Assembly: GCA_001805445.1 (NCBI GenBank) | Contig: MHGF01000003.1 | Location: 54,736-118,735, forward strand | Length of the DNA stretch: 64,000 nucleotides | Source: Omnitrophica WOR_2 bacterium GWF2_43_52 | Lineage (GTDB): Bacteria > Omnitrophota > Gorgyraeia > Gygaellales > UBA12090 | Reading direction: 5' to 3' | In this document: piece by piece, positions 3,009 through 44,830 of the stretch | How positions within the stretch are numbered: the stretch's first letter is position 1 | How the letters are laid out: each line of letters starts with the position of its first letter | Translations under genes and position numbers: made by a program | The notes under the pieces: generated by a model | Told to the model about the DNA's origin: nothing | Seen by the model: the letters and a program-made list of their open reading frames with translations, nothing else | Databases searched by the model: none

Positions 3009-3019
3009 ATGAGGTTTCA

Positions 3020-5988: not shown

Positions 5989-6563
5989 GGGGGAGAGTGG
6001 CAAAACCTGCAATCTTTTTAGATCGCGATGGAGTGATTAACCGCTACCCCGGTGACGGAAAATACGTTACCTGTTGGAAAGAGTTCCGATTCCTGCCACA
6101 TGTTAAAAAGGCTATAGCTTTATTAAACATCAGGAAACAGCCACTCTTTGTGATTTCAAATCAGGCAGGTGTCGCCAAAGGTATATTTTCCCAGGAATCT
6201 CTTACTGCCATTACCACAAATATGTTAAAGGCGCTTGAGAAAAACGGCGCTTTTTTAGAGGCGGTTTACTATTGTACCCATAGGGACGAAGACCATTGCT
6301 CCTGCCGTAAGCCTAAGGCCGGCCTTATTAAAACCGCGGTACAATCGTATAAGGGTAGTATTGACATCAAAGAATCTTTTTTTGTAGGTGATACCCTTCG
6401 CGATGTGCATACCGCAAAGGCCGCGGGCTGCAAATCAATTCTGGTATTTTCCGGCAATGAGAAATTAGCCAACCGTAAAAACTGGGATATTCAGCCGGAT
6501 TTTGTCTTTCGTAATCTTTACGAAGCAGCCAAATTTATCGTAAAATATAGACAGGCATTATGA
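5985..6563 (+). CDS. gmhB: D-glycero-D-manno-heptose 1,7-bisphosphate 7-phosphatase (HAD family, GmhB)
   Basis: The HAD motif I 'IFLDRDGVIN' is present. The zinc-binding 'CSCRKPKAGL' resembles the GmhB C-x-C-R-K-P motif. 'FFVGDTLRDV' matches motif III. The size is 192 aa. Confidence 0.8.
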   Translation: MRGRVAKPAIFLDRDGVINRYPGDGKYVTCWKEFRFLPHVKKAIALLNIRKQPLFVISNQAGVAKGIFSQESLTAITTNMLKALEKNGAFLEAVYYCTHRDEDHCSCRKPKAGLIKTAVQSYKGSIDIKESFFVGDTLRDVHTAKAAGCKSILVFSGNEKLANRKNWDIQPDFVFRNLYEAAKFIVKYRQAL

Positions 6564-7657
6564 GCAAAGTTTTCATCGTCTATGCCTCCGCAGGCGCGGG
6601 ACATCAAAAAGCCGCTGAAGCGCTTTTTGACTACCTTAAAAGAGAATCCCCAAGCCTTGAAATCAGGCTTCTTGACATTTTAGATTATTCCCATCCTTTA
6701 GTTAAGCGTTTATATTCTGACGGATATATATTCCTTATTAGTAAGTTACCATGGGTGTGGTATTTTTTTTATCGTCTCTCTTCTTATCTCGGGAATCATC
6801 CGGTAATTTCTTTAGGTAATTACAGAAATAGCAAGGCATTCTGCGGCCTGCTAAGGAAAGAGAACCCGGATGTCGTCATCTCAACTCACTTTCTCACCAG
6901 CAGTATTATTAGCGTCTTTAAAAGGCGCGCGCTATCCCCTAAGCCGCGTTTAGTTGCCATCATAACCGATTATACCCTGCATCCGTTCTGGATAGGTGAA
7001 GGAGTTGACCTTTATATTACGTCCTGCGCGTATGTAAAGGAACAGCTGGAAAAACGCGGAATCGAGAGCGAGAGAATAAAAGCCTACGGTATTCCGGCAA
7101 AGGATACCTTCTACGTGCCGGCACAACGGAATGAAATTGCCCAAAAGCACAAAATAGCGCCAAAAGAATTCACCGTATTAGTGATTACCGGCGCAATCGG
7201 TATCGGCCCTATTGAGCACATAGTAAAGGCTCTGGCAGGAAAAGCCCAAGTATTGGTCGTATGCGGAAGGAATAAGCGCCTGTTTGAGCGCGTCAGTTTA
7301 ATGCGGCTTCCTTTGGTTAAAGTATTTCCCTTAATCAACTATGTAGATGAGTTGATGTCGGTTTCCGATGTAGTGCTTACTAAGGCAGGGGGCTTAACGA
7401 TAACTGAAAGCCTCGCAAAGAGCCTGCCGATGGTTTTTTTCTCAAGTATCCCTGGATTAGAAACTGCTAATGAGAGGACCCTCAAGCGCTGCGGCGCTGG
7501 CTTTAGAGCTTGCGGGGTTCCGGAGATTGTAAGTACCGTACTTTCTTTAAAAAACGACCCGGGTTTATATACAACGGCTAAGGAAAATATTGAACGCTTT
7601 AGAAGTCAATCAACGCTTAAGGCTATTGCCGATGAACTCAGGCGTTTTACGCGATAA
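6560..7657 (+). CDS. MGDG-synthase-like / GT28-family glycosyltransferase (UgtP/MurG-like fold)
   Basis: The N-terminal 'KVFIVYASAGAGHQKAAEAL' is typical of the MGDG_synth / processive diacylglycerol glycosyltransferase N-domain. The C-terminal 'VLTKAGGLTITESL' is a GT-B donor-binding motif. Confidence 0.6.
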   Translation: MSKVFIVYASAGAGHQKAAEALFDYLKRESPSLEIRLLDILDYSHPLVKRLYSDGYIFLISKLPWVWYFFYRLSSYLGNHPVISLGNYRNSKAFCGLLRKENPDVVISTHFLTSSIISVFKRRALSPKPRLVAIITDYTLHPFWIGEGVDLYITSCAYVKEQLEKRGIESERIKAYGIPAKDTFYVPAQRNEIAQKHKIAPKEFTVLVITGAIGIGPIEHIVKALAGKAQVLVVCGRNKRLFERVSLMRLPLVKVFPLINYVDELMSVSDVVLTKAGGLTITESLAKSLPMVFFSSIPGLETANERTLKRCGAGFRACGVPEIVSTVLSLKNDPGLYTTAKENIERFRSQSTLKAIADELRRFTR

Positions 7658-8661
7658 TGAGCCAAACTTATTTTGTTGATAAGAATAATCGTTTGGTTAT
7701 AAGACGAAAGAGCGCGAAGCTTTTACCGCAAGGTTATTTTTCAGTTGATAACGAAAACCGCCTTGTGTATTGGCTTAATGAGCCGGTTTCCTGGCGCACC
7801 ACCTACCAATTCCCCGATAAACTAATCTTTAGCGGCGCATGGAAAATCAACTCAAAATATGACCTTGAACTTGAGCTTGAGCAAAAGGAACTAGCCTTTC
7901 AAAAAAAGCGGCTAACCCTAAAGGGTAAGCTATTATCTTGCGAAAAAGACCAGATTGTCTTTGAAATACAGACTGTAAACAATAACGGCTTAGACAGCTT
8001 TTACTTGCTCAAATTATCCGGTAGATGGCAGGCGGATGAATATAACCGCCTAACCTTTTTAATAACTAAAAAGGATTCTCCTGACACCCTTACGTTTCAG
8101 GGCTCCTGGCAGCTCAATGAGAATCAGCAGATTACCTATACCTACCAAAAAACGAACCTAAAAACTAAGTCTAAGGTTTCACACACCCTGACCTTTAGCG
8201 GCTATTGGCAAATAACTTCCGCAAAGCGCCTTACCTACATACTTTCAACCGGCGCGCATTCAAGGTTTGATTTTAAGGTTCAGCTTGAGTCTCCCAATAT
8301 TCGTCCCAAAGAAGGGAGTATTAAGTATCGTCTTGGCGTAGGCATAAGGGAGCCAAGAAGGGAAAAAGCAAAGATTATTACCCTTTACGGAGCCTGGAAA
8401 TTCAGCCGTAATGCCGGCGTCATTTTTGAAATGAACCACCGCGAAGGCAGAATATACCGCCTTGAATTCGGGGCGGAAGTAAATTTTAACAGAAACAATC
8501 AAGTAACTTTTAAACTTACCGGACTGAATAGGGAACCGTTAGGTTTGAACCTTACTTTTACCCATAAGCTCTTACAAGAGCTAAACGGAGAACTCTTCAT
8601 TCGCCTAAAAAGATACAGGGATGAATCCGGCGTTGATCTAGGAGTCAAGATTCCATGGTAA
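7657..8661 (+). CDS. Hypothetical protein with ~4 internal beta-rich repeats
   Basis: It is coding-like and coupled to the upstream gene (TGA/ATG overlap). The repeats 'LIFSGAWKINSKYDLEL', 'LTFQGSWQLNENQQITYTY', 'LTFSGYWQITSAKRLTYIL' and 'ITLYGAWKFSRNAGVIFEM' recur about every 45-60 aa. I see no recognisable catalytic motif. Confidence 0.45.
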   Translation: MSQTYFVDKNNRLVIRRKSAKLLPQGYFSVDNENRLVYWLNEPVSWRTTYQFPDKLIFSGAWKINSKYDLELELEQKELAFQKKRLTLKGKLLSCEKDQIVFEIQTVNNNGLDSFYLLKLSGRWQADEYNRLTFLITKKDSPDTLTFQGSWQLNENQQITYTYQKTNLKTKSKVSHTLTFSGYWQITSAKRLTYILSTGAHSRFDFKVQLESPNIRPKEGSIKYRLGVGIREPRREKAKIITLYGAWKFSRNAGVIFEMNHREGRIYRLEFGAEVNFNRNNQVTFKLTGLNREPLGLNLTFTHKLLQELNGELFIRLKRYRDESGVDLGVKIPW

Positions 8662-8761
8662 GTTTTGACGGTTACTAAACAAGCGGGAATTCATCCCTTC
8701 CTGTATCAGTCTACTGTATTCCATCCCTCGACAGTACAAAATTAAAAAAACTAAAAAAATA

Positions 8762-8790
8762 CTGTATTTGTATCATAACTATGTTATAAT
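8762..8790 (+). promoter_or_regulatory. Candidate sigma70-type promoter with extended -10 (TGT-TATAAT) for the protease operon
   Basis: 'tgtTATAAT' lies at 8782-8790 in a 146-bp AT-rich intergenic gap. A weak -35 'ctgtat' sits 17 nt upstream. The direct repeat 'tactgtatt' occurs twice, at about 8714 and 8759. This is sequence-only and was judged against E. coli consensus. Confidence 0.25.
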
Positions 8791-8807
8791 AATACACATT
8801 ATTAGCT

Positions 8808-9083
8808 ATGAAATCACGCAAAATCAAGGTTTTTACCAGATCTGATATAAAAAAGATAAAAGAAAAATACGAGAAGGATTTACTCCTGCTTCCTCATGTA
8901 GTCGGCGTAGGTATAGGGTATAAGATAACACAGGAAAGAGAGAAAAACACCCTTTGTCTAAAAGTATATGTGAGTAAAAAAACCCCTTCCAAAGAACTAT
9001 CCAAGAATAAAACAATCCCGACGCAGCTTGATGGTATTCTTACAGATGTTGAGGAAATCGGTATGGTAAAAGCCTATGCGTAA
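8808..9083 (+). CDS. Small protein (91 aa) paralogous to the N-terminal pro-like domain of the downstream serine protease
   Basis: It shares 'VVGVGIGYKI...LCLKVYV...IPTQLDGILTDVEEIGMVKAYA' with residues about 25-95 of ORF 9076-10002 ('VVGCGIGEKI...ICLKVYV...IPQAVSLIETDVEEIGKIKALGF'). Its stop overlaps the start of the next gene. Confidence 0.5.
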   Translation: MKSRKIKVFTRSDIKKIKEKYEKDLLLLPHVVGVGIGYKITQEREKNTLCLKVYVSKKTPSKELSKNKTIPTQLDGILTDVEEIGMVKAYA

Positions 9084-10002
9084 ACAATCTATGGCAGATA
9101 TCTATACGAATTTACAGGATAAGGAAACATGGCTCTTAGAAAAAGCCAATGTGGTCGGTTGTGGTATAGGCGAAAAGATTAAAGCGGGGCTTCCTCTGGG
9201 CCGGATTTGTCTTAAAGTTTATGTTGAGATAAAACTTCCTCTTAATAAACTCGCTAAGCATGATATTATCCCCCAAGCAGTATCTCTTATTGAGACTGAT
9301 GTTGAGGAAATCGGTAAAATCAAGGCTTTAGGCTTTACCGGCCGCTACCGCCCGGCATTAGGAGGCTCATCAATTGGCCATTATCAAATCACCGCGGGCA
9401 CTTTAGGTTGTCTGGTAAAGGATAAGGCCACTCATGAAATCCTTATTCTCAGCAATAATCACGTCTTAGCCAATTCCAATGAGGCTAAAAAAGGCGATAG
9501 CATCCTGCAACCCGGGCCCTATGATGGGGGAAAAAAGGCGAAAGATACCATTGGTACCTTAGAAAGGTGGGTTGAGATTAAGTTTGGTAAAGAGGCCAAT
9601 CTCATAGATGCCGCCTTAGCAAGGCCCAAGAGCCAAAAATTAGTGAAGCCTGAGATAATGGAAATAGGAGCACCTTTGGGGACTATAAAGCCTAAATTGG
9701 GCATGCTTATTCAAAAGTCAGGAAGGACAACCGGTTACACCGCGGGGAAGATTAAAGACATTAGCGCTACGATAAAAATAAATTACGACCAAAAAGTAGC
9801 CTTATTCAAAAACCAAATTCTCACCACGAATATGTCACAGGGAGGAGATTCCGGTTCTCTGGTTTTGGATATGAAAAAACGCGCCATTGGCCTGCTGTTT
9901 GCAGGCTCAGATGTAGTAACTATTATGAATCCGGTTTTAGAGGTAATAAGGCTACTTAACGTCGTGCCATATTCTATAGTTTCAGAAAAGGTTGAGGAAT
10001 AA
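9076..10002 (+). CDS. Chymotrypsin-fold (S1, streptogrisin/alpha-lytic-protease-like) serine protease with N-terminal pro-like domain; no signal peptide
   Basis: The catalytic triad context is His 'LSNNHVLAN', Asp 'NLIDAALA' and Ser 'QGGDSGSLV'. 'SGRTTGYTAGKIKDISATIKINY' resembles the S1E 'GRTTG...G.I' segment. The N-terminal ~95 aa are duplicated in the upstream small ORF. The N-terminus lacks a hydrophobic signal. Confidence 0.7.
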   Translation: MRKQSMADIYTNLQDKETWLLEKANVVGCGIGEKIKAGLPLGRICLKVYVEIKLPLNKLAKHDIIPQAVSLIETDVEEIGKIKALGFTGRYRPALGGSSIGHYQITAGTLGCLVKDKATHEILILSNNHVLANSNEAKKGDSILQPGPYDGGKKAKDTIGTLERWVEIKFGKEANLIDAALARPKSQKLVKPEIMEIGAPLGTIKPKLGMLIQKSGRTTGYTAGKIKDISATIKINYDQKVALFKNQILTTNMSQGGDSGSLVLDMKKRAIGLLFAGSDVVTIMNPVLEVIRLLNVVPYSIVSEKVEE

Positions 10003-10106
10003 TTCTAATACCAGAAAATGGTACATCGCACGTTGAATATCAAATTGTCCTAAGTTTAAAACTTCCTTATTAAACGAGTGTAGTATTACTTAGAAGGTGC
10101 AATAGT

Positions 10107-12062
10107 ATGTGCGGTATTTCAGGACTCTACTCCTTAAACGGGCGTTCGATAAGATTCGATGTTTTGCGTAAGATGAGCCAATTGTTACTACATCGCGGCC
10201 CTGACGGAGAAGGATACTTTTTGTCGGATACCCGTCTTAAGAAATTTGACGTTCATTATAATTCCGCGGATAGTTTCAATGTCAATGGGCTAAAGCCTGA
10301 TCTCGGATTGGCTCATAGGCGCCTCAGCATTATCGATTTAAGCGTTATCGCCCGCCAACCTATGTCTAATGATGATGGAAGCCTGTGGATTGTATTCAAC
10401 GGTGAGATTTATAATTATATTGAATTGAGGCGCGAATTGTCTACGTTGGGCTGTAATTTTAAAAGTGCTTCTGACACTGAAATAATTTTGCGTTCATATG
10501 AATTATTTGGCATGGGTTGCGTTAAGCGGTTTAACGGTATGTGGGCCTTTGCTATATGGGATGCGCGTAAAAACATACTTTTTTGCTCTAGAGATAGGTT
10601 TGGCGTAAAACCATTTTATTATTTTTATAATGATGGCCTATTCGCATTTGCTTCTGAAATAAAATCCCTCCTGCTGATTCAGCGGGCATATCCTAACGAG
10701 CGAGGAATTTATAATTACCTAGTTAAATCTTTCGGTTTTCTGGATGTCACAGAAGATACTCTTTTTGCGGATATTTATCAATTGCAACCTGCCCATAATC
10801 TGGTTATCGGCGCAGATGGGATAAAAATAGAAAAGTACTGGGATATCTATAGTGCTATTGATAAACCTTTACTTAGCCAGGGGCAGGCCATAGATGCATT
10901 CGGCTCCCTTTTTATCGATGCCATAAAAATAAGGCTGCGTAGTGATGTTAAAGTGGCAGGAGCCTTAAGCGGCGGGATTGATTCTTCGTCCATAACCTGC
11001 GTGATTAAAAAACGCCTCAAAGTAAATAACTATGAAACATATTCCGCGTGTTTTGATAACCCGCACTATGATGAACGTGAATATATCGCTGAGGTAACGC
11101 GAGATACCGGATATAAATCAAATTATGTTTTCCCTGACGAAGCATCCTTCTTTGATATTTTAAAGCGTCAAATATGGCTTCAGGATGAACCATTTAACGC
11201 GATGTGGGTGCATAGCCAGTGGTTTGTTTACCAGAAAGCAGCCGCTAATGGGGTAAAAGTTTTTATTAATGGTCATGGCAGCGATGAATCCTTGGGGGGA
11301 TATTATCCACACTTTGATGCCTTATGGGCTGATTTATTGCGGCGAGGCAGAATATTACTCTTGCTACATGAAATTTCTTTATTCTCTAAGCATAATCCCA
11401 GCCGATCCGTCAATTTGACGAACATCTTGTATTACATAGCGAATTATTATACCCCTGGCTTTATTAAAAGTTTCTTCTCAAAAACGCCAAATTTCCTTAA
11501 TTCTGATTTCGCGCAGAGAAATAGCAAAAAAAAATATCTTTATGAAAATCATTTTAATGATTTCTTAAACCGCTATCTTTATGAGTCATTGTTTATTTCT
11601 CCGATCAGAGGTATGTTGCATTTTGATGACCGTAACAGTATGGCGTTTTCTATAGAATCACGCACGCCTTTTCTTGACTATCGCCTTATAGAACTGGCAT
11701 TTAGCCTGCCTGGGACGTATAAGATTAAAAATGGTTATAATAAATATCTTCTAAGAGAAACAATGAAGGGGATCATCCCGGAGCGAATACAGGCGCGTTT
11801 TACTAAAAAAGGGTTTTCTTCTGGCGCGCCACAATGGTTACGGCAGAACAAAAAGTATTTGTATGATTTATTTAAACCGCAAACATGCCTTGCTGGCAAG
11901 TATCTAAAAAGTCCGGAAGTTATTAAAGAAATTGACCGCTATTGTGACGGAGAAACAAATATACATGAGCAATTAGGGTCTTGGGTAACATTGGAATTAT
12001 GGCTAAGAAAGTTTATTGACGGTAACGGCGGAATAAAAACTGAGGATATATTCCTCAATTGA
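10107..12062 (+). CDS. Asparagine synthetase (glutamine-hydrolysing) family amidotransferase, paralog 1; probable sugar amidotransferase (PseA/WbpS-like role)
   Basis: The N-terminal 'MCGISGL' holds the Ntn Cys2 nucleophile. 'LAHRRLSIIDL' and 'IVFNGEIYNY' follow. The synthetase-domain PP-loop is 'AGALSGGIDSS'. The size is 651 aa. Confidence 0.85.
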   Translation: MCGISGLYSLNGRSIRFDVLRKMSQLLLHRGPDGEGYFLSDTRLKKFDVHYNSADSFNVNGLKPDLGLAHRRLSIIDLSVIARQPMSNDDGSLWIVFNGEIYNYIELRRELSTLGCNFKSASDTEIILRSYELFGMGCVKRFNGMWAFAIWDARKNILFCSRDRFGVKPFYYFYNDGLFAFASEIKSLLLIQRAYPNERGIYNYLVKSFGFLDVTEDTLFADIYQLQPAHNLVIGADGIKIEKYWDIYSAIDKPLLSQGQAIDAFGSLFIDAIKIRLRSDVKVAGALSGGIDSSSITCVIKKRLKVNNYETYSACFDNPHYDEREYIAEVTRDTGYKSNYVFPDEASFFDILKRQIWLQDEPFNAMWVHSQWFVYQKAAANGVKVFINGHGSDESLGGYYPHFDALWADLLRRGRILLLLHEISLFSKHNPSRSVNLTNILYYIANYYTPGFIKSFFSKTPNFLNSDFAQRNSKKKYLYENHFNDFLNRYLYESLFISPIRGMLHFDDRNSMAFSIESRTPFLDYRLIELAFSLPGTYKIKNGYNKYLLRETMKGIIPERIQARFTKKGFSSGAPQWLRQNKKYLYDLFKPQTCLAGKYLKSPEVIKEIDRYCDGETNIHEQLGSWVTLELWLRKFIDGNGGIKTEDIFLN

Positions 12063-12077
12063 CAAAGGAGATGATAC

Positions 12078-13067
12078 ATGAAGTATCTGGTAGTTGGCTC
12101 TGGATCGATCGGAAAAAGGCGCATTGGCATTTTAAATGATTTGGGCATAACATCTATTGACATATGCGATAAATCTGAAACACGGATGGATGATGTTTGT
12201 CAGAAATACAGGGTCGAAGGCAGATATACGGATTATGCTGTGGCTTTGGCAAAAAAACCCGATGTTGTCATTATCTGCACGCCGCCGGTATTTCATATCT
12301 CTATTGCTAAGGCCGCTGTAGAAGCAGGGGCAGGCTTAATGATAGAAAAACCGCTGGCTCATAACTTAGATGGCGTAGATAGCCTGATTAAACTTATTCA
12401 GAAAAAGAAAGCGATTGCTGGCGTTGCTTATACTCTGCGTTTTCATAAAGGCGTTAACCTATTGCGGAATATAGTTGAGCAGAAAATTATAGGAAAGGTT
12501 TATTCTGTGCGCGCGGAGTGCGGCCAATACCTCCCAGATTGGCATCCGTGGGAAGATTATCGAAATTGGTATATGTCAAAAAAAAACGAAGGAGGAGGAG
12601 CGATTTTAGATATTAGCCATGAAATTGATTATGTAAGGTGGCTTCTTGGAGATGCTAAGGAAGTAGGGTGCTTTTACGGAACTATTAGCGATTTACAGAT
12701 GGATGCAGATGATGTGGCTGAAATACTATTGAGGTTTAAAAGCGGGGCCATTAGTTCTATACATCTTGACCTTTTGCAGAGAGATTACAGAAGAAATTGC
12801 GAAATTATTGGTGAAAAAGGGACTGTTTTATGGGACTATACGACAAAACAAATAAAGGTTTTTACAAAGGAAAAAGGTTGCTGGGAGACCATAGAATATA
12901 AAGAGGAACGCTCAGATATGTTCGTCGAAGAAACCAAACATTTTATTAAGTGTTTTGAAAAGAAAGCGCAGATTATGGTTTCTGTTGAAGACGCCGCTAA
13001 AACATTAGCTATTGCAGTTTCGGCGAAAGAGTCGAGCGATTCGAAAAAAATTGTGATACTTCCCTGA
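12078..13067 (+). CDS. Gfo/Idh/MocA-family NAD(P)-dependent oxidoreductase
   Basis: The N-terminal Rossmann 'MKYLVVGSGSIGKRR' is present. 'IEKPLA' matches the conserved EKP motif. The size is 329 aa. A strong SD 'AAAGGAG' precedes the start. Confidence 0.75.
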   Translation: MKYLVVGSGSIGKRRIGILNDLGITSIDICDKSETRMDDVCQKYRVEGRYTDYAVALAKKPDVVIICTPPVFHISIAKAAVEAGAGLMIEKPLAHNLDGVDSLIKLIQKKKAIAGVAYTLRFHKGVNLLRNIVEQKIIGKVYSVRAECGQYLPDWHPWEDYRNWYMSKKNEGGGAILDISHEIDYVRWLLGDAKEVGCFYGTISDLQMDADDVAEILLRFKSGAISSIHLDLLQRDYRRNCEIIGEKGTVLWDYTTKQIKVFTKEKGCWETIEYKEERSDMFVEETKHFIKCFEKKAQIMVSVEDAAKTLAIAVSAKESSDSKKIVILP

Positions 13068-13096
13068 CTTCTTCTATTGATGAGGTATCAGAGACG

Positions 13097-13798
13097 TTGG
13101 AAAAACAGATCTTAGCGTTTGTGCCCGCCCGGGGGGGGTCAAAAAGGCTTCCCGGGAAAAATATCAAACTTTTAGGTGGCATTCCGTTATTAGCCTATTC
13201 CTTAATCGCGGCGCTGAATTCGCGCATCATTACTAAAATTGTGCTTTCGAGCGATGATGATACAATGCTTGCTATTGGTGGTCACTATGGCCGGATTGAA
13301 GGTATCCGCCGTCCCGATAGCCTATCAGATGATAAAGCGACGACGCTTTCTGCCATAGCGCATTGCCTAGAGTATTTAGAAGTCCATCAGGCATATCGGC
13401 CGGATATCGTAGTCTTATTGCAACCAACCTGCCCTTTCAGAGAAAATGGCTATATTGACGCTGCGATTAATTGTTTTTTAGAGTCAGATGCTCATTCTTT
13501 GATTGGTGTATGCGAAGAAAAATATAAACTCGGTGAAATACGCGGTAAGTATTTTTATCCTCAGTATAAAGAAGGCACGCGTAAGCAAGATATGCCGGCT
13601 GTATACCGGGAAAATGGGTCAATTTACATCAGTAGGAGCCATATAATAAAAGAAGGCACGTTATTCGGGAAAAAGATACTCCCCTACCTTGGCAATAAAT
13701 TTAATGCGGTAAATATTGATACACAGCTTGATTTTGATAGTGCGGAAATGATTTTAGAAAAATACGCTGACCAATTTAAAGGAGGCGCGATACAATGA
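13097..13798 (+). CDS. Acylneuraminate cytidylyltransferase family (CMP-nonulosonic-acid synthetase; NeuA/PseF/LegF-like)
   Basis: 'AFVPARGGSKRLPGKNIKLLGGIPLL' matches the NeuA/PseF 'PARGGSKG.P.KN' motif. The KdsB motif 'PARYASTR' is absent. The size is 233 aa. A G8 homopolymer lies inside the catalytic motif at 13131-13138. Confidence 0.8.
   Translation: MEKQILAFVPARGGSKRLPGKNIKLLGGIPLLAYSLIAALNSRIITKIVLSSDDDTMLAIGGHYGRIEGIRRPDSLSDDKATTLSAIAHCLEYLEVHQAYRPDIVVLLQPTCPFRENGYIDAAINCFLESDAHSLIGVCEEKYKLGEIRGKYFYPQYKEGTRKQDMPAVYRENGSIYISRSHIIKEGTLFGKKILPYLGNKFNAVNIDTQLDFDSAEMILEKYADQFKGGAIQ
13131..13138 (+). repeat. Poly-G homopolymeric tract (G8) within the catalytic 'PARGGSK' motif codons of the CMP-NulO synthetase gene
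   Basis: I read 'cccgcccGGGGGGGGtcaaaa' directly. Tracts of G7 or longer are rare in this roughly 40% GC sequence. Confidence 0.9.
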
Positions 13799-14820
13799 AA
13801 AGGATAAAAATTGATAATCACTGGATAGGTGAAAGATGCCCTGTGTTTATTATCGCTGAGGCAGGAATTAACCATAATGGTGACTATCGAAAAGCCCTTG
13901 AACTTGTTGACGCGGCGGCTGAATGCGGAGCAGACGCAGTCAAGTTTCAGACTCACCTTCCAGAACACGAAATGCTGCGTGAGGGATTTAGCGCAGGCTA
14001 TATTGGGCAATCGTTTTTTGATTTATTGAAAAAGTGCCAGTTAAGCGAAATTGACCATCTGCGCCTCATGCAGAGAGCAAAGAAAAAAAAGATAATGTTT
14101 CTTTCTACGCCTTTTAGCCGAGAGGCGGTAGATTTTTTGGATAGGATAGGCATTGCAGCATTTAAAACCGGATCCGGTGAATTGACAAATATACCGCTTC
14201 TAGAACATATCGCTAAAAAGAATAAACCTATGATAATTTCTACAGGAATGAGCAGTATGACGGAAATAGGGAATACCGTAAAAGCGATAACAAAGTTGAA
14301 TAAAGAAATTATCCTGATGCAATGTACATCTACTTATCCGGCTGAATATAAGAATATCAATTTAGCAGTAATAAAAATACTAAAAAAGCGTTTTGGTTTT
14401 CCTGTGGGGCTCTCAGATCATTCTTATGGTATGTATACCGCGCTAGGCGCAGTGGCTTTGGGCGCGGCAATGATAGAGAAGCATTTCACTCTCAATAGGT
14501 CATGGCCTGGCCCTGACCAAAAGGCATCAATTACACCTCGGGAACTGCAGGAATTAGTACGCGGCACAAAGGCTTTGCAGCAGGCATTGGGGAACAAAAA
14601 GAATATCCTCAGGGAGGAGATCCCCGTTCGCAAAATGGCGAATGAAAGCGTTGTTTCTTTGCGCGACATAAATGCCGGCGAAAGGCTGACGCTTAGCAAT
14701 GTTTGGGTCAAACGCCCCGGGACAGGAATCCCTGCCGCCAGCTTAAAAAATGTTATCGGCAGAAGCGCACGGAAACAAATTCGCATTAATTCGCTGATAA
14801 AATGGAGTGATTTACAATGA
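13795..14820 (+). CDS. N-acetylneuraminate synthase family (NeuB/PseI/LegI), with C-terminal SAF domain
   Basis: 'VFIIAEAGINHNGDYRKALELVDAAAECGADAVKFQT' is the classic NeuB N-terminus. 'LSDHS' is present. The C-terminal SAF-like segment is '...RDINAGERLTLSNVWVKRPGTGIPA'. Confidence 0.85.
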   Translation: MKRIKIDNHWIGERCPVFIIAEAGINHNGDYRKALELVDAAAECGADAVKFQTHLPEHEMLREGFSAGYIGQSFFDLLKKCQLSEIDHLRLMQRAKKKKIMFLSTPFSREAVDFLDRIGIAAFKTGSGELTNIPLLEHIAKKNKPMIISTGMSSMTEIGNTVKAITKLNKEIILMQCTSTYPAEYKNINLAVIKILKKRFGFPVGLSDHSYGMYTALGAVALGAAMIEKHFTLNRSWPGPDQKASITPRELQELVRGTKALQQALGNKKNILREEIPVRKMANESVVSLRDINAGERLTLSNVWVKRPGTGIPAASLKNVIGRSARKQIRINSLIKWSDLQ

Positions 14821-15971
14821 AAAAAAAGAGGATTTGTATTGTAACTGCGAATCGCGCAGAATATAGCCGTGTAAAAACAGTACTTGAGGCAATTAGCAAA
14901 AATCAAAAATTAGAATATATACTCATAGTTATCGGTTCTCATTTGTTGCGCAAATACGGAAATACCTATCGAGAAATAGAGCGCGATGGTTTTACTATTC
15001 ACGAACGCATTTATAATACAATAGAAGGGGAAAATCCTGTTACCATGGCTAAATCAGCGGGTTTTGCCATAATAGAATTAGCAACTCTTTTAGACAGCTA
15101 TAAGCCTGATTTTGTAGTAGTTCTTACCGATAGATATGAAACCTTAAGCGCTGCTGTTACGGCTGCCTTTTTAAATATTCCTGTAGCTCATATTCAGGGT
15201 GGAGAAGTTACAGGGACAATAGATGAAAGCATAAGGCACGCGGTAACTAAGTTCGCGCATGTTCATTTCGCCGCTAGCGAAGCAAGTAGGCAGAGAATTA
15301 TCAAGTTGGGAGAAACTCCTGAATTCGTGTTTAATGTAGGCTGCCCTGCTACAGATTTGCTGCTGCGTGCAAAAATACTACGGCAAAAAGAGGTCCTTAC
15401 TAATGAGGAGATCAAAAATCCGCATATAAAAGCAAATGACCCGTTCATTGTAGTATTACAGCATCCGGTTACTACAGAATTCGGCGAGGGGTATTCCCAA
15501 ATAGAAGAAACATTGTATGCGATAAAAGATTTCGGAATGCAGACGATAATGCTTTGGCCTAATGTTGATGCCGGAAGCGAGCATATTGTAACTGCCATAA
15601 GAAGATTTTTAGAAGAATATCGATTGAGGAATATTTTTATGTACCGTCATATTACTAATAGCCTTTTTATACAGTTATTGTATCACTGTAAATGTTTAAT
15701 TGGGAACTCCAGCTCTGGTATCAGGGAAAGCTGTTATTTCGGCACTCCGGTAGTTAATATCGGCACCCGTCAACATGGCCGTGAACGCGGCAAGAATGTA
15801 GTAGATGTTGGGTATGGGCGTCACTTGATACTTAAGGCAATTAAAAAACAAGTTAGCCATGGGCGTTACCCCCGAGAGAATGTTTTTGGCAAAGGGGATG
15901 CCGGTAGGAAAATTGCCGATATTTTATCAACAATAAACGGGATTAAAGTACAGAAGATTATAACGTATTAG
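14817..15971 (+). CDS. UDP-N-acetylglucosamine 2-epimerase (hydrolysing), NeuC/LegG-like
   Basis: 'RICIVTANRAEYSRVKTVLEAI...LEYILIVIGSHL' is typical of the NeuC N-terminus. The GT-B-like epimerase fold motifs are 'DRYETLSAAVTAAFLNIPVAHIQGGE' and 'IGNSSSGIRE'. Confidence 0.8.
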   Translation: MKKKRICIVTANRAEYSRVKTVLEAISKNQKLEYILIVIGSHLLRKYGNTYREIERDGFTIHERIYNTIEGENPVTMAKSAGFAIIELATLLDSYKPDFVVVLTDRYETLSAAVTAAFLNIPVAHIQGGEVTGTIDESIRHAVTKFAHVHFAASEASRQRIIKLGETPEFVFNVGCPATDLLLRAKILRQKEVLTNEEIKNPHIKANDPFIVVLQHPVTTEFGEGYSQIEETLYAIKDFGMQTIMLWPNVDAGSEHIVTAIRRFLEEYRLRNIFMYRHITNSLFIQLLYHCKCLIGNSSSGIRESCYFGTPVVNIGTRQHGRERGKNVVDVGYGRHLILKAIKKQVSHGRYPRENVFGKGDAGRKIADILSTINGIKVQKIITY

Positions 15972-15975
15972 AAAA

Positions 15976-17325
15976 ATGATTAATCAGTTAAGACTATTCA
16001 TAGTTCAGATGCGCTACACGATAAAGCCTTTTTTTTACTTACCCATTACATTTTTAAGGCGCGTTGTTTTTGGCAGAGACGCGCATCTCAAACAGTACTT
16101 TTGGGACAAATGGGGTTTTTTAGACAAACATATGAATGATATTTTAAGCGGAGCGGAGAGTATCCTCTGGATAGATGTTGCTTCCGGTGGAGAAATTTTA
16201 CAATTAGTGAGCTTCCTTCGCTTGTTAAAGAAGCATCATAAAGGTTTAAAGATAGTCCTTTCAACGGCAAGCGATGATGCATATGCGTATGCGGAAAAAT
16301 TAGACACAATAGATTTTGTTTTTAATACTCCGTGGGATTTTGCCTTTGTTGCCAGGCGCGCCTTAAGGCAGGTCAACCCAAACCTTTTTATCAGTGTTGA
16401 ATTTACCCGGATCCCAAAACACTTTTTAACTGCTCAGAGCCTTAGAGTTAAAACCTTGCTTCTGAGCGGATTGATGAGCTGCCGTATGCAGGAACATCCG
16501 ACCTTAGAGCGTACGTACGCGCTTAATGCGTATCATTTTTTTGATTTTATAGCTGCCAAAGAGAATCGTGATTATGAAGGATTCGCGGCGTTAGGTATAG
16601 AGCGTAGCAAGATAGTGCGCTTAGGCAACATGAAGTTTGATACAGGTTTTTTAGATATCAAAGAAAGCCAGATATCCACCTTAAGAGATGTTTTTGCCCT
16701 TAACCCTGGGCAAAAAATATTTCTTGCAGCAAGTGTATTCTCGCCGGAAGAGGAAATAGCTATTGATGCCTTTAGGAAAGCTAAAGCTGTAATCCCGAAT
16801 CTGCGCCTGATTATTGTCCCGCGTTTTACTAAATATATACCAGGAATTGTCGATTATTTAAAACACCATGATTTTTCATATATATTGCGTACAGAGCTTC
16901 CAAAGCGAGATAACGCGGAGGGGCTTAACGATACGGTCGTCATCGTTGATACATTCGGTGAATTAGTGAAATTGTATCATTTAGCTGATTATATTTTTTT
17001 AAGCGGCAGTATCTATCCAGTAAATAAAATAGGTGGCGGCAAGAATATCGTAGAGCCTTTAGCAAGTAAAAAACCCATATTCTTTGGCCCGCACATGCGT
17101 TATTGGCAGGAAATCACGCAGCCCCTGATGTCAATTTACCAAGCATTGGAGGTTCGTAACGCGGATGATTTAGCCACTGGTATAATAGACTTAAGCAGGA
17201 GGCCGGATATACAAAATGCGTTAAGGGATAAGGCCATTGAGTTATTGCATCAATATACTGATGTGATAAGCGATAATGTGCGTTTTGTAGAGACGATACT
17301 CTACAATGGGAAGGTAGCTGCATGA
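15976..17325 (+). CDS. GT30-family glycosyltransferase (3-deoxy-D-manno-octulosonic-acid transferase / WaaA-like)
   Basis: 'ILWIDVASGGEILQLVSFLRLLKK' parallels the WaaA 'WIHxxSVGE...P' acceptor-domain motif. 'LGNMKFD' parallels WaaA 'GSLKFD'. The GT-B C-domain is 'IVDTFGELVKLY'. The size is 449 aa. Confidence 0.6.
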   Translation: MINQLRLFIVQMRYTIKPFFYLPITFLRRVVFGRDAHLKQYFWDKWGFLDKHMNDILSGAESILWIDVASGGEILQLVSFLRLLKKHHKGLKIVLSTASDDAYAYAEKLDTIDFVFNTPWDFAFVARRALRQVNPNLFISVEFTRIPKHFLTAQSLRVKTLLLSGLMSCRMQEHPTLERTYALNAYHFFDFIAAKENRDYEGFAALGIERSKIVRLGNMKFDTGFLDIKESQISTLRDVFALNPGQKIFLAASVFSPEEEIAIDAFRKAKAVIPNLRLIIVPRFTKYIPGIVDYLKHHDFSYILRTELPKRDNAEGLNDTVVIVDTFGELVKLYHLADYIFLSGSIYPVNKIGGGKNIVEPLASKKPIFFGPHMRYWQEITQPLMSIYQALEVRNADDLATGIIDLSRRPDIQNALRDKAIELLHQYTDVISDNVRFVETILYNGKVAA

Positions 17326-18323
17326 GTGCCCCGGTAATTCTTAACGACGGCTCTATGCATCTTTCCTTTGGGAGAAATTGCGTAAATAAATTTATCCGCT
17401 ATAGCGCACCTTTATTTGTAAAAGCCATGCTGGCGCGCAAGAAATATATTGCCCCGATTTTCTCACGCGACCTATACGCGCGCATTGAATTAACTAATGC
17501 CTGTAACTATCGATGTTCATTTTGCCCCCACGGCAGTATGAAGCGCAAACTTGGCATTATGGATAATGTTTTGTACAGAAAAATTATCGACGATTGCCTC
17601 GCCAGCGGTATCCGTAAAATAAATTTGACAAGTTACGGTGAGTCGTTGTTAGACCCGGATGTGCTGGAAAAAATAAGATATGCAAAAGAGACGGGGGCTG
17701 ACTACGTTTATCTTACTACCAATGGCTCGCTTCTTGATCAAGAAAAGTCTAAAGCAGTTATCGCGCTTGGAGTTGATGAAGTGCGCGTTAGTATCGACGC
17801 GATATCAGCGGATGAATATTCAGAGGTGCGCTCTGAATACAATTACGATACCGTTTTAAAGAATATTTCGTTTTTGCTCCAAGCCAAAAAAGCAGACAAA
17901 TCCAAAACGCCGATTGTAACAGTATGTTTTATTCAACGCCGGGACAATGAAAAAGATGCAAAAGAATTTATAAAAAACTGGGAAGAGAAAGCCGACGTGA
18001 TACATTTGCAGGCTTTCCATAATTGGGCGGCACGTATTGAAGATAAGGAACCGGGCTCCTTTGTCCCCTGTAAACGCCTATGGTATACCTTAAATATTTT
18101 TTGGGACGGCCGTGTAGGGTTATGTTGCGCGGATACAGAAGGCCAATATATTCTGGGAGATTTTCGTTATAATTCTTTAACGGAAATCTGGAATGGTGAG
18201 AAATTTCAGGAGGCACGAAAGCGTAATTTACATAATGATAAGGATTTTATTTGCAGCCGCTGTAGTCTTCCAATGCGAGATAGCATGCTTTGGATAAAAA
18301 AGATGCTCACGGCAAAAAACTAA
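17322..18323 (+). CDS. Radical SAM enzyme with C-terminal SPASM/twitch-like auxiliary cluster domain, paralog A
   Basis: The Cx3Cx2C motif is 'CNYRCSFCPHG'. The C-terminal Cys cluster is 'WDGRVGLCCADTEG...CSRCS'. The size is 333 aa. Confidence 0.8.
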   Translation: MSAPVILNDGSMHLSFGRNCVNKFIRYSAPLFVKAMLARKKYIAPIFSRDLYARIELTNACNYRCSFCPHGSMKRKLGIMDNVLYRKIIDDCLASGIRKINLTSYGESLLDPDVLEKIRYAKETGADYVYLTTNGSLLDQEKSKAVIALGVDEVRVSIDAISADEYSEVRSEYNYDTVLKNISFLLQAKKADKSKTPIVTVCFIQRRDNEKDAKEFIKNWEEKADVIHLQAFHNWAARIEDKEPGSFVPCKRLWYTLNIFWDGRVGLCCADTEGQYILGDFRYNSLTEIWNGEKFQEARKRNLHNDKDFICSRCSLPMRDSMLWIKKMLTAKN

Positions 18324-18332
18324 CAAATACCT

Positions 18333-19424
18333 ATGGAAATTAAATTTATTGGCGCACGAATTAAAGAGATATGCCATAAGATTAAGAAACGTGGGGTGAG
18401 CTGGGGCATTAAACGCATGCTGGCGAATATGGGGCGTTGGTTAAAAGAATCGACACAAAGTGTTTTCTCATTTATTGCAGATGCCCGTCGTAATGGCTTT
18501 CGCTGTGCCTATGCTAATCGCAGTGTTGAGCGGCGCTTCCACTCTTTAATCAAAGAATCTTATTATTACAGTACGTTGCGGATTCCTGCCCCCTATCCTG
18601 TCCATGCCCATATTGAAGTAACTTCCTTATGTAATTTGACTTGTTCGATGTGCCCGCGCGCAAACCTGCAGAGGGAGCAGGGGGCAATGAGTTTTGATGT
18701 ATTCCGTAAAATTATAGATAAATTGGCATTAGCGCGCCTGCCCAATACTTTATTTTTGCATTTCACCGGAGAACCCCTGCTAAATGATGATTTACCGATG
18801 ATGATTCGTTATGCCAAGGATAAAGGTGTGCCATGGATAAAATTTAATACCAATGCCGTTTTTTTGGATGAGAAAAAAAGCATGCAAATTATCGACTCCG
18901 GCCTTGATTGCCTGGTTTGCGCCTTAGAAATGAATAAAGAGCAGGAGGCACTACTGCGTCCTGGCGCGGATTATGCGGCAGTCGCATCAAACATTGAAAA
19001 ATTCATGAAACTAAAAAAGAAATCAAAAGCCACAAAACCTCTTGTAAAGCTACAGATGCTGGTAACAAAAGAAAATCAAGGATTTAAAACTCAAGCGTAT
19101 AATCGCTGGAAAAATACCGTTGACCGGGTTGAATTCCACCCATTACACACCGTTGGCGGTTTAGTTGATGACTTAGGCGCAACTAATCTTAAACGTTCCC
19201 ACTGCGAGCAGGTCTGGGTTTCGCTTATTTTTCTTTGGAATGGAGATGTGGTGCCGTGTTGTTTTAACCATGATGCTTCCTTGCGACTCGGTAATATACT
19301 TACAGATTCGTTTGAGGCGATTTGGCACAATGACTTTATCAACAAATTAAGGGAGCAGGATCGCGTAGGCGTGTATTCGAATCCTGTTTGTCGTCGATGC
19401 ATGGTTCAAGGTGCGAGCTATTAA
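18333..19424 (+). CDS. Radical SAM enzyme with SPASM/twitch-like domain, paralog B
   Basis: The Cx3Cx2C motif is 'CNLTCSMCPR'. The C-terminal cluster is 'WNGDVVPCCFNHD...CRRCM'. It has the same 'W-[DN]-G...CC' signature as paralog A. Confidence 0.8.
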   Translation: MEIKFIGARIKEICHKIKKRGVSWGIKRMLANMGRWLKESTQSVFSFIADARRNGFRCAYANRSVERRFHSLIKESYYYSTLRIPAPYPVHAHIEVTSLCNLTCSMCPRANLQREQGAMSFDVFRKIIDKLALARLPNTLFLHFTGEPLLNDDLPMMIRYAKDKGVPWIKFNTNAVFLDEKKSMQIIDSGLDCLVCALEMNKEQEALLRPGADYAAVASNIEKFMKLKKKSKATKPLVKLQMLVTKENQGFKTQAYNRWKNTVDRVEFHPLHTVGGLVDDLGATNLKRSHCEQVWVSLIFLWNGDVVPCCFNHDASLRLGNILTDSFEAIWHNDFINKLREQDRVGVYSNPVCRRCMVQGASY

Positions 19425-19610
19425 AAAATGATGAGCAATGCTCGAAAAACCCAAAGTGAACGCTTCCTCATTTTTCGGGTGCAGAAGCATATAGATTTGG
19501 TCATTACAGCTATTACAGTTTTAACGGACTTTTAATCATAGCAAAAAACCATTTTTTTGCACCAGCATGGTCTTTTGAGGTAGTGTGCTCTAAGCGTATG
19601 ATTTCTACAC

Positions 19611-21083
19611 ATGAGTAGTGTTAAAAAGAAATTGTTTACAGGAAGTATATACAAATTCATCTCTAATATAATAGTAGTCGCATTAGGGTTGCTCACTTCT
19701 ATCGCAGTCAATCGCATGTACGGAAAGGAAAAATATGGCCTGCTTGTTATAGCCTTTACCATAACCAGCTTTTTCTCCGGATTCACCAACTTAGGAGCAA
19801 AAGCTACGCTAAATAAAATCATTCCTAAGCTGAAAACGAGCAAGGATAGAACACAGGATGTCACTGCTATCATTATTACCGGATCAATTTTAGTTTTTTG
19901 TGGAGCTTCTATTGTTGGGCTTTTGCTTTATCTTTCGAGGAACATTATCATAGGTTTTTATAACTTGCCTCATTTTTTGCCAGTACTTATAGCAAGTGTA
20001 TTCTATTTATTTTTCTTCTCTATTTTAGACTTCATCTTCTCGGTGTATCAAGCATTTCAAGATTGGGTTAAAGAGAGCTTGCTTAGCGTACTTTATCCCT
20101 TATTCTATTTAGTGCTGATAGGGATATCTTTTTGTCTATTCCGTAAAGGCATAGAAACAGTTTTGTATTCCAATATTATATCTGCGTTTTTTATTTCTGG
20201 AGTAGGTATTTTTTACTTAAAAGAACATCTCAATTTAAGAAAAATCAATAAATATGACTATGCTTCATTTAAGAGCACATCTCATGAATTTATAAAATTC
20301 GGAATTCCACTCCTTATCCCCCAGGCAAGCGCTTTGTTGGTAATGTGGGCGGACAAATTGATTCTTGGAAAATATGCAAGTATCGCCGAGCTTTCGTTAT
20401 ATTATATAGCGTATAGCTTCATAACTGGCTTGCTGATATTTATAAAAACAATATTCACTATCGCCATGCCTTATTTTGCCGAATTTCATACTATGGATTC
20501 ACTCAAGAATAAGTTCGATATTTTTTTCAAACTGAATATCTATTTATCCATGTTTATTTCTTTGTCTATGTTTGTTTTAATCGATCGTATTGTTACCCTG
20601 ATGTATGGAGGCGGATATGAAAAGGTGGGTTTACTTTTTAAATTTATGATCCCTCTTATTTTTATGAAGTCTTTGCTCTTGGCTCCTGCTGTTTTTATGC
20701 AAAATGTATATTCTATGGTCAAGGTAATTAACATTGGAGGCATTCTATTAGGCGCCACAGATATTCTGATGTGTATTTTTTTAGTGCCGCGTTATGGAGC
20801 TATCGGAGCAGTAGTGTCGGTTTTAGGAGCTCATTTTTTATATACTTGCTGGCTGTTCTTGCTAATCCCTGCTATTAGAAAATTGATTCCGTTTAGAAGT
20901 ATTATTAATGCTCTACTGATATCTATAGTATTGATATCAGTTTATTATTTGATGTTCGCGTTTAAACTAAACAGCATTCTTTTGTTACTTACAGTCCTTA
21001 CCTCATTATTCTTTATTTTTTTGTTTGTATGCCGTGAAGATCGTTTCATTCTGCAGATTGCAGGGAAGGCATTTAGGGCCTAA
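19611..21083 (+). CDS. Wzx-like polysaccharide/O-unit flippase (MOP/polysaccharide biosynthesis protein family), copy 1
   Basis: It is 490 aa and very hydrophobic, with about 12-14 predicted TM segments throughout. This is typical of the family. A second such gene at 51100 supports the call by context. Confidence 0.6.
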   Translation: MSSVKKKLFTGSIYKFISNIIVVALGLLTSIAVNRMYGKEKYGLLVIAFTITSFFSGFTNLGAKATLNKIIPKLKTSKDRTQDVTAIIITGSILVFCGASIVGLLLYLSRNIIIGFYNLPHFLPVLIASVFYLFFFSILDFIFSVYQAFQDWVKESLLSVLYPLFYLVLIGISFCLFRKGIETVLYSNIISAFFISGVGIFYLKEHLNLRKINKYDYASFKSTSHEFIKFGIPLLIPQASALLVMWADKLILGKYASIAELSLYYIAYSFITGLLIFIKTIFTIAMPYFAEFHTMDSLKNKFDIFFKLNIYLSMFISLSMFVLIDRIVTLMYGGGYEKVGLLFKFMIPLIFMKSLLLAPAVFMQNVYSMVKVINIGGILLGATDILMCIFLVPRYGAIGAVVSVLGAHFLYTCWLFLLIPAIRKLIPFRSIINALLISIVLISVYYLMFAFKLNSILLLLTVLTSLFFIFLFVCREDRFILQIAGKAFRA

Positions 21084-21142
21084 AGATTCGTTTCACCAGA
21101 ATCACTGCTTTTTTAAAAAACTAAATTAAGGAAATACAAATA

Positions 21143-35546: not shown

Positions 35547-35558
35547 GGTTTCTAAAGT

Positions 35559-36299: not shown

Positions 36300-36317
36300 T
36301 GAGAGAGGAGTAAATAT

Positions 36318-40769: not shown

Positions 40770-40836
40770 TTTACAGTAAATTAAAAATTAACCTTTTCCT
40801 GCCTTTTAGGGAAAAGACAAGCGGGTATCAATGCCA

Positions 40837-44805: not shown

Positions 44806-44830
44806 CGTAAGGAATGAAAGGATCTTCATA

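Follow-up and report, generated by a model that had tools for sequence, protein, structure and literature searches.

A predicted GT30-like nonulosonic-acid transferase, apparently separate from WaaA, in a conserved eight-gene block of an Omnitrophota bacterium

[quoted passage not shown] The question is raised by a 64,000-nucleotide stretch of contig MHGF01000003.1 (hereafter the window) from Omnitrophica WOR_2 bacterium GWF2_43_52, a single co-directional glycan cluster with such a gene at positions 15976-17325. To our knowledge, GT30 enzymes are known only as CMP-Kdo transferases, and our search of the full-text literature returned no description of a GT30/PF04413 NulO transferase and no link of GT30 or PF04413 to nonulosonic acids. 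Here we analyze this locus by comparison with related loci and reference proteins. We lean toward the reading that positions 10107-19424 are a conserved operon that makes, tailors, and transfers a sialic-acid-type NulO, with the GT30-like enzyme as a CMP-NulO transferase. The NeuABC core appears ordinary; the new part would be a GT30-like clade with predicted conserved AsnB and radical-SAM partners.

Six open reading frames (ORFs) that an earlier note on this DNA had placed at 10107-17325 were found exactly there, all on the + strand, as are all notable ORFs of the window. They encode an AsnB-type glutamine-dependent amidotransferase (10107-12062; 651 amino acids, aa; Asn_synthase 212 bits plus GATase_6/7), a divergent paralog labeled AsnB1; a Gfo/Idh/MocA NAD(P) oxidoreductase (12078-13067; 329 aa; Pfam GFO_IDH_MocA N- and C-terminal domains); a NeuA-like CMP-nonulosonate synthetase with a TTG start (13097-13798; 233 aa; CTP_transf_3, 80 bits); the nonulosonate synthase NeuB (13795-14820; 341 aa; Pfam NeuB 280.7 bits plus SAF); the hydrolyzing UDP-GlcNAc 2-epimerase NeuC (14817-15971; 384 aa; TIGR03568 NeuC_NnaA, 412.6 bits, exceeding the cut-off of 235.9); and a GT30-like inverting GT-B glycosyltransferase (15976-17325; 449 aa; Glycos_transf_N PF04413, 89.3 bits, cut-off 23.9). 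Neighboring ORFs overlap by 4 nucleotides or are separated by gaps of 4-29 nucleotides, a spacing that matches one operon. A consensus scan for promoters and terminators over 8600-21200 gave counts equal to the shuffled expectation and was uninformative. The stop codon of the GT30-like gene overlaps the start, at 17322, of a further + strand gene for a radical SAM/SPASM protein (enzyme 1, 17322-18323, 333 aa), which is followed by a paralog on the same strand (enzyme 2, 18333-19424, 363 aa); both match Pfam Radical_SAM and SPASM.

The unit is these eight genes (10107-19424) and not the six, because two independent metagenomic contigs, L090 and L091, repeat the whole order of AsnB, Gfo/Idh/MocA, NeuA, NeuB, NeuC, and GT30-like genes together with the two radical-SAM/SPASM genes. 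Identity of the block proteins to those of the window is 71-84% in L090 and 56-75% in L091, and the GT30-like gene is the fastest-evolving member. The genes that flank the block differ in both contigs; since the order recurs with other flanks, the gene neighborhood is not a chance juxtaposition.

One explanation of the GT30-like ORF is that it is the housekeeping WaaA, transferring Kdo from CMP-Kdo to lipid IVA beside an unrelated NulO operon. The ORF encodes a PF04413/GT30 protein, its closest solved structure is A. aeolicus WaaA (21-22% identity), and no second GT30 gene was found within the 64 kb. In its AlphaFold2 model (pLDDT 92.8), the top Foldseek matches are chains of A. aeolicus WaaA 2xci (E 2e-18 to 3.5e-17), followed by generic GT-B folds at about 1e-11. 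With WaaA/KdtA (GT30, PF04413; A. aeolicus 2XCI/2XCU) it has in common the GT-B fold, a helical N-terminal segment, and the CMP-binding and catalytic residues, and both enzymes are predicted to use a CMP-activated 2-keto-3-deoxy-ulosonic acid as donor. When residues were mapped onto A. aeolicus WaaA, with roles taken from a review (PMC6286764), all CMP-binding residues (P211, R212, F247, G248, L250, N273, and E276 in A. aeolicus numbering) and all catalytic residues (G30, E31, E98, and K162) proved to be retained. Most of them are at least 89% conserved across the clade described below, E98 being at 75%. A housekeeping WaaA would also suit the Wzy_C, GT9, and GmhB-like genes that precede it in this co-directional cluster.

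What the protein lacks speaks against that explanation. A. aeolicus R56, a putative ligand of the lipid IVA 1-phosphate, and W102, thought to be a rest for the lipid IVA acyl chains (PMC6286764), are replaced by D101 and I146, respectively, and E100 is replaced by T144. In the W102 column, tryptophan occurs in 127 of 131 canonical sequences and in none of 72 clade members. The histidine of the WxH motif (128/131 canonical) and the arginine of NxR (114/131) are not among the commonest residues in the clade, and the Glu100 column, acidic in 129 of the 131, is hydrophobic or small there. The arginine of PRHxxR is likewise among the signature residues missing from the GT30-like protein, which are 85-98% conserved in the 131 canonical WaaA sequences. 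Identity to WaaA is 21-25%. The scores on the WaaA equivalog models are also far too low, with the best at 170 against a cut-off of 438 (NF004388) and the other four at 100-136 against 363-617, and the NCBI entry of the identical protein (OGX22416.1, from the same Omnitrophica bacterium) is named by PGAP 'hypothetical protein A2Y00_03070'.

These features are shared by a wider group. A word-indexed search returned 25 close relatives at 204-990 bits, below which WaaA-like proteins scored no higher than 137 bits. When 1.84 billion representatives were searched with a profile, 21,484 GT30 relatives came up; their scores fall off gradually and would not alone set a clade apart, so that we separate it by the tree, the signature columns, the Pfam scores, and the gene context. 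A neighbor-joining tree built from 203 GT30 domains puts the window protein inside a separate clade of 72. PF04413 scores were 71-111 bits for five proteins with high clade-profile scores, including that of the window (four of the five belong to the clade of 72, whereas P0109 counts among six intermediate sequences), versus 189-241 bits for four sampled canonical proteins. Fusion partners differ as well, being LpxK, GT9, or DUF374 in canonical proteins and GT4 or a B12 radical-SAM domain in clade proteins. An 866-aa protein, P0071, considered as a fusion of clade and canonical WaaA domains, was set aside, its domain scores and the tree showing a tandem of two canonical-type domains. By these comparisons, the window's GT30-like protein falls outside canonical WaaA and belongs to a non-WaaA clade. 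Whether it would group with bona fide WaaA or apart from it had been left to a check in the earlier note; the clade of 72 without signature residues and the equivalog scores far below cut-off place it apart.

Gene context separates the two groups further. Clade members were located in metagenome-assembled genomes of Omnitrophota, Vicinamibacterales (Acidobacteriota), Thermodesulfovibrionia (Nitrospirota), Methylomirabilia, Nitrospinota, and Planctomycetales. We counted neighbors within 5 kb on the same strand at 19 clade loci and 69 canonical waaA loci. A NeuA-like gene is present at 14/19 clade loci versus 0/69 canonical ones, NeuB at 11/19 versus 1/69, and an AsnB1-like gene at 8/19, in distant phyla, versus 0/69. 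Wzx-like neighbors occur at 5/19 and 0/69, respectively, whereas GT9 neighbors show the opposite trend (1/19 versus 14/69). Canonical WaaA is linked to lpxK, GT9, or DUF374, the usual waaA-lpxK arrangement being exemplified by locus L092, whereas the GT30-like genes are linked to neuA, neuB, and neuC. Pfam annotation of clade loci gives a consistent picture, and at three further clade loci a CTP_transf_3 gene again overlaps the GT30-like start, an arrangement typical of the clade. A hand tally of about 22 distinct clade loci after de-duplication, which includes L007 with its Pfam-only CTP_transf_3 assignment, has CTP_transf_3 upstream in about 20 and, no more than 10 kb away, a synthase of the NeuB or DAHPS/KDO8PS family at 21.

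With this linkage, with start and stop coupled to NeuC and the radical-SAM gene, and with clade members in phyla where others carry canonical WaaA (Vicinamibacterales, Planctomycetota), we regard a housekeeping WaaA in the window as very improbable. P0049, considered as a canonical waaA that might share its assembly with clade locus L001, proved to be a waaA-lpxK locus from a different sample and serves only to illustrate the canonical context. The earlier proposal that the GT30 enzyme is a candidate transferase for the NulO comes out of the comparison well: equivalog scores, clade membership, residues, and the linkage to neuA and neuB make it a good candidate NulO transferase rather than a housekeeping WaaA.

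A different explanation keeps Kdo as the donor sugar. The GT30-like protein could be an accessory Kdo transferase that uses CMP-Kdo made elsewhere and modifies a glycan other than lipid A, its linkage to NulO genes reflecting a shared product. GT30 enzymes have been described as CMP-Kdo transferases only (PMC5811610), and other non-WaaA Kdo transferases exist, such as KdoT (PMC12856342), which set a precedent for ulosonic-acid transfer to acceptors other than lipid IVA. KdoT has not been assigned to any GT family (PMC12856342), and the KpsS/KpsC-type and KdoT-type enzymes belong to other protein families, none of them GT30. Some clade loci carry DAHPS/KDO8PS-family synthases, either replacing NeuB or besides it, which would suit this explanation. 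For some of these synthases a 'KdsA-like' label was considered and dropped, since NCBIfam shows them to be DAHPS/KDO8PS-family proteins, and those that directly adjoin GT30-like genes reach the cut-offs of neither the DAHPS nor the KDO8PS models. The linked cytidylyltransferases are PseF/NeuA-like rather than KdsB-like, with PseF model scores exceeding KdsB model scores, and at most of the 22 clade loci CTP_transf_3 lies directly upstream of, or overlaps, the GT30-like gene. Neither kdsA nor kdsB was found within the 64-kb window. Taken together, these points leave an accessory Kdo transferase as a distinctly unlikely explanation.

Clade GT30-like genes also occur in another conserved module, found at L094 (327-7265) and L095 (2059-8932), with parts of it in L007 and L009. 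Its order is a GT2-CTP_transf_3 fusion, AP_endonuc_2, KduI, a DAHPS/KDO8PS-like synthase, CTP_transf_3, the GT30-like gene, and a methyltransferase, and the synthases adjoining the GT30-like gene in L007 and L009 score below both DAHPS and KDO8PS cut-offs. Such a module points to a putative ulosonic acid of another kind. Most simply, every clade enzyme would use whichever CMP-ulosonic acid the genes linked to it produce; in the window, under that reading, it would be a NulO of the N-acetylneuraminic acid (Neu5Ac) type.

The core at 13097-15971 is, by the comparisons of its NeuA-like and NeuB proteins, a predicted NulO module rather than a Kdo module. The best PDB matches of the NeuA-like protein are the CMP-Neu5Ac synthetases 6ifd and 1eyr (about 96 bits), followed at 77 bits by mouse CMAS, and no KdsB was matched in the PDB at E<=1e-5. 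On NCBIfam models it scores 134 bits for PseF (cut-off 206) and about 38 bits for the KdsB models. For NeuB, the PseI model gives 292.7 against a cut-off of 340, the DAHP-synthase models (KdsA/DAHPS superfamily) give about 30 bits, and no Kdo8P-synthase (KdsA) model was returned by the NCBIfam search. On this score comparison, the NeuA-like protein does not group with KdsB, nor NeuB with KdsA, the outcome that the earlier note had named as weakening its NulO interpretation, and the module assignment stands. A tblastn search with NeuC against plasmids had its best match in a neuC locus carried by a plasmid of Rhizobium sp. WL3; two 449-464-aa 'hypothetical' genes beside that neuC were considered as GT30-like candidates and turned out to be unrelated.

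Which NulO would this module make? The earlier note had seen in it the logic of the Campylobacter ptm/leg systems. In a corresponding explanation, the module makes a legionaminic (Leg)-type or other 5,7-diamino NulO, from a UDP-diNAcBac-type precursor supplied by genes outside the window, with the Gfo/Idh/MocA enzyme acting as in the Lga/Ela and Ptm systems. Comparison with PDB references argues otherwise for all three core enzymes. Window NeuC scores 297.6 bits with the human GNE epimerase domain versus 202.1 with A. baumannii LegG (5xvs), and NeuB scores 245 bits with N. meningitidis NeuB versus 181 with PseI and 172 with SpsE. A control locus, L003, gives the reverse picture: its NeuC prefers LegG (272.7 bits) to GNE (222.3), its NeuB prefers SpsE (206 bits) to N. 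meningitidis NeuB (177), and its NeuA reaches only 51 bits with mouse CMAS, compared with 77 for the window protein. L003 (2-8465) carries NeuB, NeuC, an N-formyltransferase, a DegT aminotransferase, a short-chain dehydrogenase/reductase (SDR) dehydratase, a B12 radical-SAM gene, a cytidylyltransferase, and a GT30-like gene, and its NeuC/NeuB/NeuA set thus stands in a Leg-type context; its downstream part is syntenic with window 19.6-31 kb. Because NeuC, NeuB, and NeuA of the window lean to sialic-acid enzymes while those of L003 lean the opposite way, we consider a Neu5Ac-type core likely, with reasonable confidence, and window NeuB is most likely an N-acetylneuraminate synthase.

The genes needed for a Leg-type precursor were sought as well. 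Among the 52 ORFs of the 64-kb window, Pfam scans detected no SDR 4,6-dehydratase and no hexapeptide or GNAT N-acetyltransferase, and in L090 and L091 neither a 4,6-dehydratase nor an N-acetyltransferase was found in the approximately 10 kb upstream of the GT30-like gene. The two DegT proteins of the window score 244 and 263 on PseC (cut-off 423) and 222 and 195 on LegC (cut-off 420), far below threshold, and would not be PseC or LegC equivalogs. A DegT aminotransferase gene lies directly upstream of the AsnB gene in L090 (2915-4111) and L091 (2600-3733), which would favor the Leg-type explanation; the closest window relative of the L091 protein (47% identity) is encoded at 4091-5200, displaced 5 kb upstream of the block. 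This protein may be an oxidize-then-transaminate partner of the Gfo/Idh/MocA enzyme. Also in favor of a Leg-type product are the arrangement of that enzyme beside the cytidylyltransferase, as in ElaA-ElaB, the fact that TIGR03568 and TIGR03569 cover Neu and Leg enzymes alike, and the occurrence of the same GT30-like clade in the clearly Leg-type sister locus L003. On balance, a 5,7-diamino NulO appears rather unlikely. The Campylobacter analogy thus gives way to a Neu5Ac-type pathway, toward which the NeuC/NeuB/NeuA comparisons and the L003 control point, and a Leg/Pse pathway is further disfavored by the missing 4,6-dehydratase and N-acetyltransferase and by DegT and PseI scores below cut-off.

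The Gfo/Idh/MocA enzyme deserves attention in its own right. Its best PDB match is TM_0414 (3EZY, 88 bits), and its EKP lysine and its histidine are residues 91 and 181, respectively. ElaA, a 323-aa protein proposed to be a CMP-Leg5,7Ac2 8-dehydrogenase (C8 oxidation), has catalytic K91/H181 and the same closest structure, 3EZY (PMC13656337). Compared with ElaA through this published description, the 329-aa window protein, with the same closest PDB entry and the same residue numbers, is suggested to be a candidate ElaA/LgaF-like CMP-nonulosonate dehydrogenase. A homolog search returned 2158 relatives with generic names only and gave no functional discrimination.

Asparagine synthetases of the classical type amidate carboxylates via an acyl-adenylate, whereas N-acetyl-sugar amidotransferases of the PseA/WbuX type (TIGR03573-like family) make acetamidino groups. 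The amidotransferase at 10107-12062 scores 426.6 bits on TIGR01536 (cut-off 267), has an intact N-terminal Cys2 (MCGI) and an intact SGGIDS PP-loop at residue 288, and no WbuX-type model appeared among its NCBIfam matches. It is of the classical AsnB type and not of the acetamidino-forming one, so that the acetamidino chemistry borrowed from ptm/leg systems in the earlier note falls away. Methylation of the NulO, predicted there as probable, is no more than a possibility suggested by the methyltransferases downstream. AsnB orthologs (61-80% identity) occupy the same position in L090 and L091.

The two radical SAM/SPASM enzymes have CX3CX2C motifs, CNYRCSFC in enzyme 1 and CNLTCSMC in enzyme 2, match each other at 119 bits, and reach no NCBIfam equivalog. 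In L090 and L091, the gene after the GT30-like one encodes an ortholog of enzyme 1 (57-78% identity), and enzyme 2 is represented there as well. Beside NeuB, relatives of enzyme 1 are found in L001, L007, and L010, and relatives of enzyme 2 in L004 and L006.

A pathway can be proposed from these parts. By homology, NeuC would hydrolyze and epimerize UDP-GlcNAc to N-acetylmannosamine, NeuB would condense this sugar with phosphoenolpyruvate to Neu5Ac, and the NeuA-like enzyme would activate Neu5Ac to CMP-Neu5Ac. By analogy with the reaction proposed for ElaA, and in line with the residue pattern, the Gfo/Idh/MocA enzyme could then oxidize a hydroxyl group in the side chain of the CMP-sugar. More speculatively, AsnB might convert a carboxylate, possibly the ulosonate C1, into a carboxamide, and the two radical-SAM/SPASM enzymes might tailor the sugar or the acceptor. 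The GT30-like enzyme is predicted to take a CMP-NulO as donor, with Glu73 as the base and Arg283, Asn357, and Glu360 holding CMP, and to pass the sugar on to some acceptor that is not lipid IVA; we infer this donor and acceptor because of the gene linkage, the retained CMP-binding and catalytic residues, and the lost lipid-IVA signatures.

The acceptor would most likely be an oligosaccharide, either lipid-linked or of the core, for which the Wzx, GT4, GT2, and GT-C genes nearby are responsible, and lipid IVA is disfavored because the residues associated with it are lost from the GT30-like protein. Downstream of the eight-gene block, and outside it, are a Wzx-type flippase (19611-21083, + strand; Pfam Polysacc_synt), a GT4 glycosyltransferase (23510-24673, + strand; Glycos_transf_1 and Glyco_transf_4), a small polyprenyl-phosphate-type GT2 (from 25595), and a PMT_2 GT-C protein (from 29931); Wzy_C proteins are encoded at 61-645 and from 60039. 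This gene set hints at a glycan linked to a lipid, which would be flipped before being ligated or polymerized, and the pathway could also end on the core of lipopolysaccharide (LPS). The GT4 enzyme at 23510-24673 appears functionally linked to the GT30-like clade through a gene fusion, P0066, in which a clade GT30-like domain is joined to a GT4 half that matches it at 227 bits.

Further upstream, GT9 proteins are encoded at 632-1600 and 3005-4087 (94.8 and 115.4 bits against an equivalog cut-off of 134.6) and a GmhB-like HAD phosphatase at 5985-6563 (155 bits against 178). The GT9 heptosyltransferases and GmhB that the earlier note had reported at 0.6-6.5 kb are present as families, while all three remain below their NCBIfam equivalog cut-offs, and their assignment to the LPS inner core would hold at the family level only. 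The direct neighbors of the GT30-like gene are neuC and the radical-SAM gene. A GT28-like gene is separated from the NulO block by 7657-8661 and 8808-9083, which have no family match, and by a trypsin-like peptidase gene (9076-10002) with weak Nal1_C and Trypsin_2 matches.

The window as a whole is unusually rich in radical chemistry. It encodes six B12-binding radical-SAM proteins (21143, 27101, 28561, 37018, 49650, and 56696), three radical-SAM/SPASM proteins (17322, 18333, and 53869), four AsnB paralogs (10107, 40831, 54883, and 61355), at least five class-I methyltransferases, two Wzx-like flippases, and two Wzy_C proteins. The 884-aa ORF at 37018-39672 is itself a fusion of a B12-binding radical-SAM domain with a GT4 glycosyltransferase, and the N-terminal half of P0074, a fusion of a B12 radical-SAM domain with a clade GT30-like domain, matches this ORF at 182 bits. 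A 980-aa CotH-kinase and beta-helix protein, a VTC-domain protein, and a DUF4956 protein are encoded one after another at 32604-37004, inside the glycan cluster. A second tailoring set at 40831-47591, composed of AsnB, an ORF without Pfam match, a second Gfo/Idh/MocA gene, a carbamoyltransferase, and a DegT gene, hints at a carbamoylated amino sugar.

Several observations weigh against the proposal of a Neu5Ac-type operon with its own GT30-like transferase. The NeuA-like protein scores below every NCBIfam equivalog cut-off, and NeuB, at 381.6 on TIGR03569 NeuB_NnaB, falls just under the cut-off of 399.65. The distinction between Neu and Leg types uses few reference points (no LegI among them) and one control locus, and Leg-type clusters typically have a Gfo/Idh/MocA gene adjoining that of the cytidylyltransferase (ElaA, PMC13656337), which pulls away from a plain Neu5Ac product. 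The boundary of the GT30-like clade is soft, with the six intermediate sequences and a neighbor-joining tree that carries no bootstrap support, and the canonical control loci all come from one motif-based scan. Donor and acceptor of the clade enzymes are read from gene linkage and residue patterns only, and with GT9 and GmhB-like genes at 9-15 kb upstream, a role in the LPS inner core would be conceivable.

The NeuC-NeuB-NeuA pathway of N. meningitidis (SiaA/B/C) and E. coli K1 (NeuC/B/A) has the same three families in one operon, to which the window adds the GT30-like enzyme, AsnB, Gfo/Idh/MocA, and the two radical-SAM/SPASM genes. Sialyltransferases are known from families GT38, GT42, GT52, GT80, GT97, and GT100, and none of these turned up in Pfam scans of the window. 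With the Leg and 8-epi-Leg clusters (Lga/ElaABC of A. baumannii, Leg/Ptm of C. jejuni), the window shares a 2-epimerase, a NeuB-family synthase, a cytidylyltransferase, and an adjoining Gfo/Idh/MocA gene; it differs from them in having no LegB/PglF, LegC, or LegH and, next to the block, no ElaC-type SDR or PtmE-type nucleotidyltransferase, and in an amidotransferase of the AsnB rather than the PseA/WbuX type. From WaaA, the GT30-like enzyme differs by the absence of Trp102 and Glu100, of the histidine in WxH, of the arginines in NxR and PRHxxR, and of an R56 equivalent, and by a predicted donor that is a 9-carbon NulO and a predicted acceptor that is not lipid IVA.

Extending the proposal from the window to the whole group, the 72-member clade might comprise the first GT30 enzymes for 9-carbon NulOs, including Neu5Ac-type ones, and for other non-Kdo ulosonic acids, with a carboxylate-amidating AsnB and radical-SAM/SPASM tailoring; we put this forward only tentatively and hold it to be doubtful in this full form. 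An extreme version would have the NulO attached directly to a lipid A/core acceptor, alongside Kdo or replacing it.

If the proposal for the GT30-like enzyme is true, a GT30 subfamily with donors of the CMP-sialic-acid type would constitute a new bacterial family of sialyl- or ulosonyl-transferases, spanning Omnitrophota, Nitrospirota, Nitrospinota, Methylomirabilota, Acidobacteriota, and Planctomycetota, and a lipid-A enzyme would have been recruited for the decoration of surface glycans. Such enzymes could be recognized by the loss of Trp102, of the histidine, and of the NxR and PRHxxR motifs, together with an overlapping upstream CTP_transf_3 gene, and automatic annotations that now read 'Kdo transferase' or 'hypothetical' would be corrected. 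The finding would also give a handle on the cell-surface chemistry of Omnitrophota and other largely uncultured phyla, in which surface sugars may matter for contact with host or prey.

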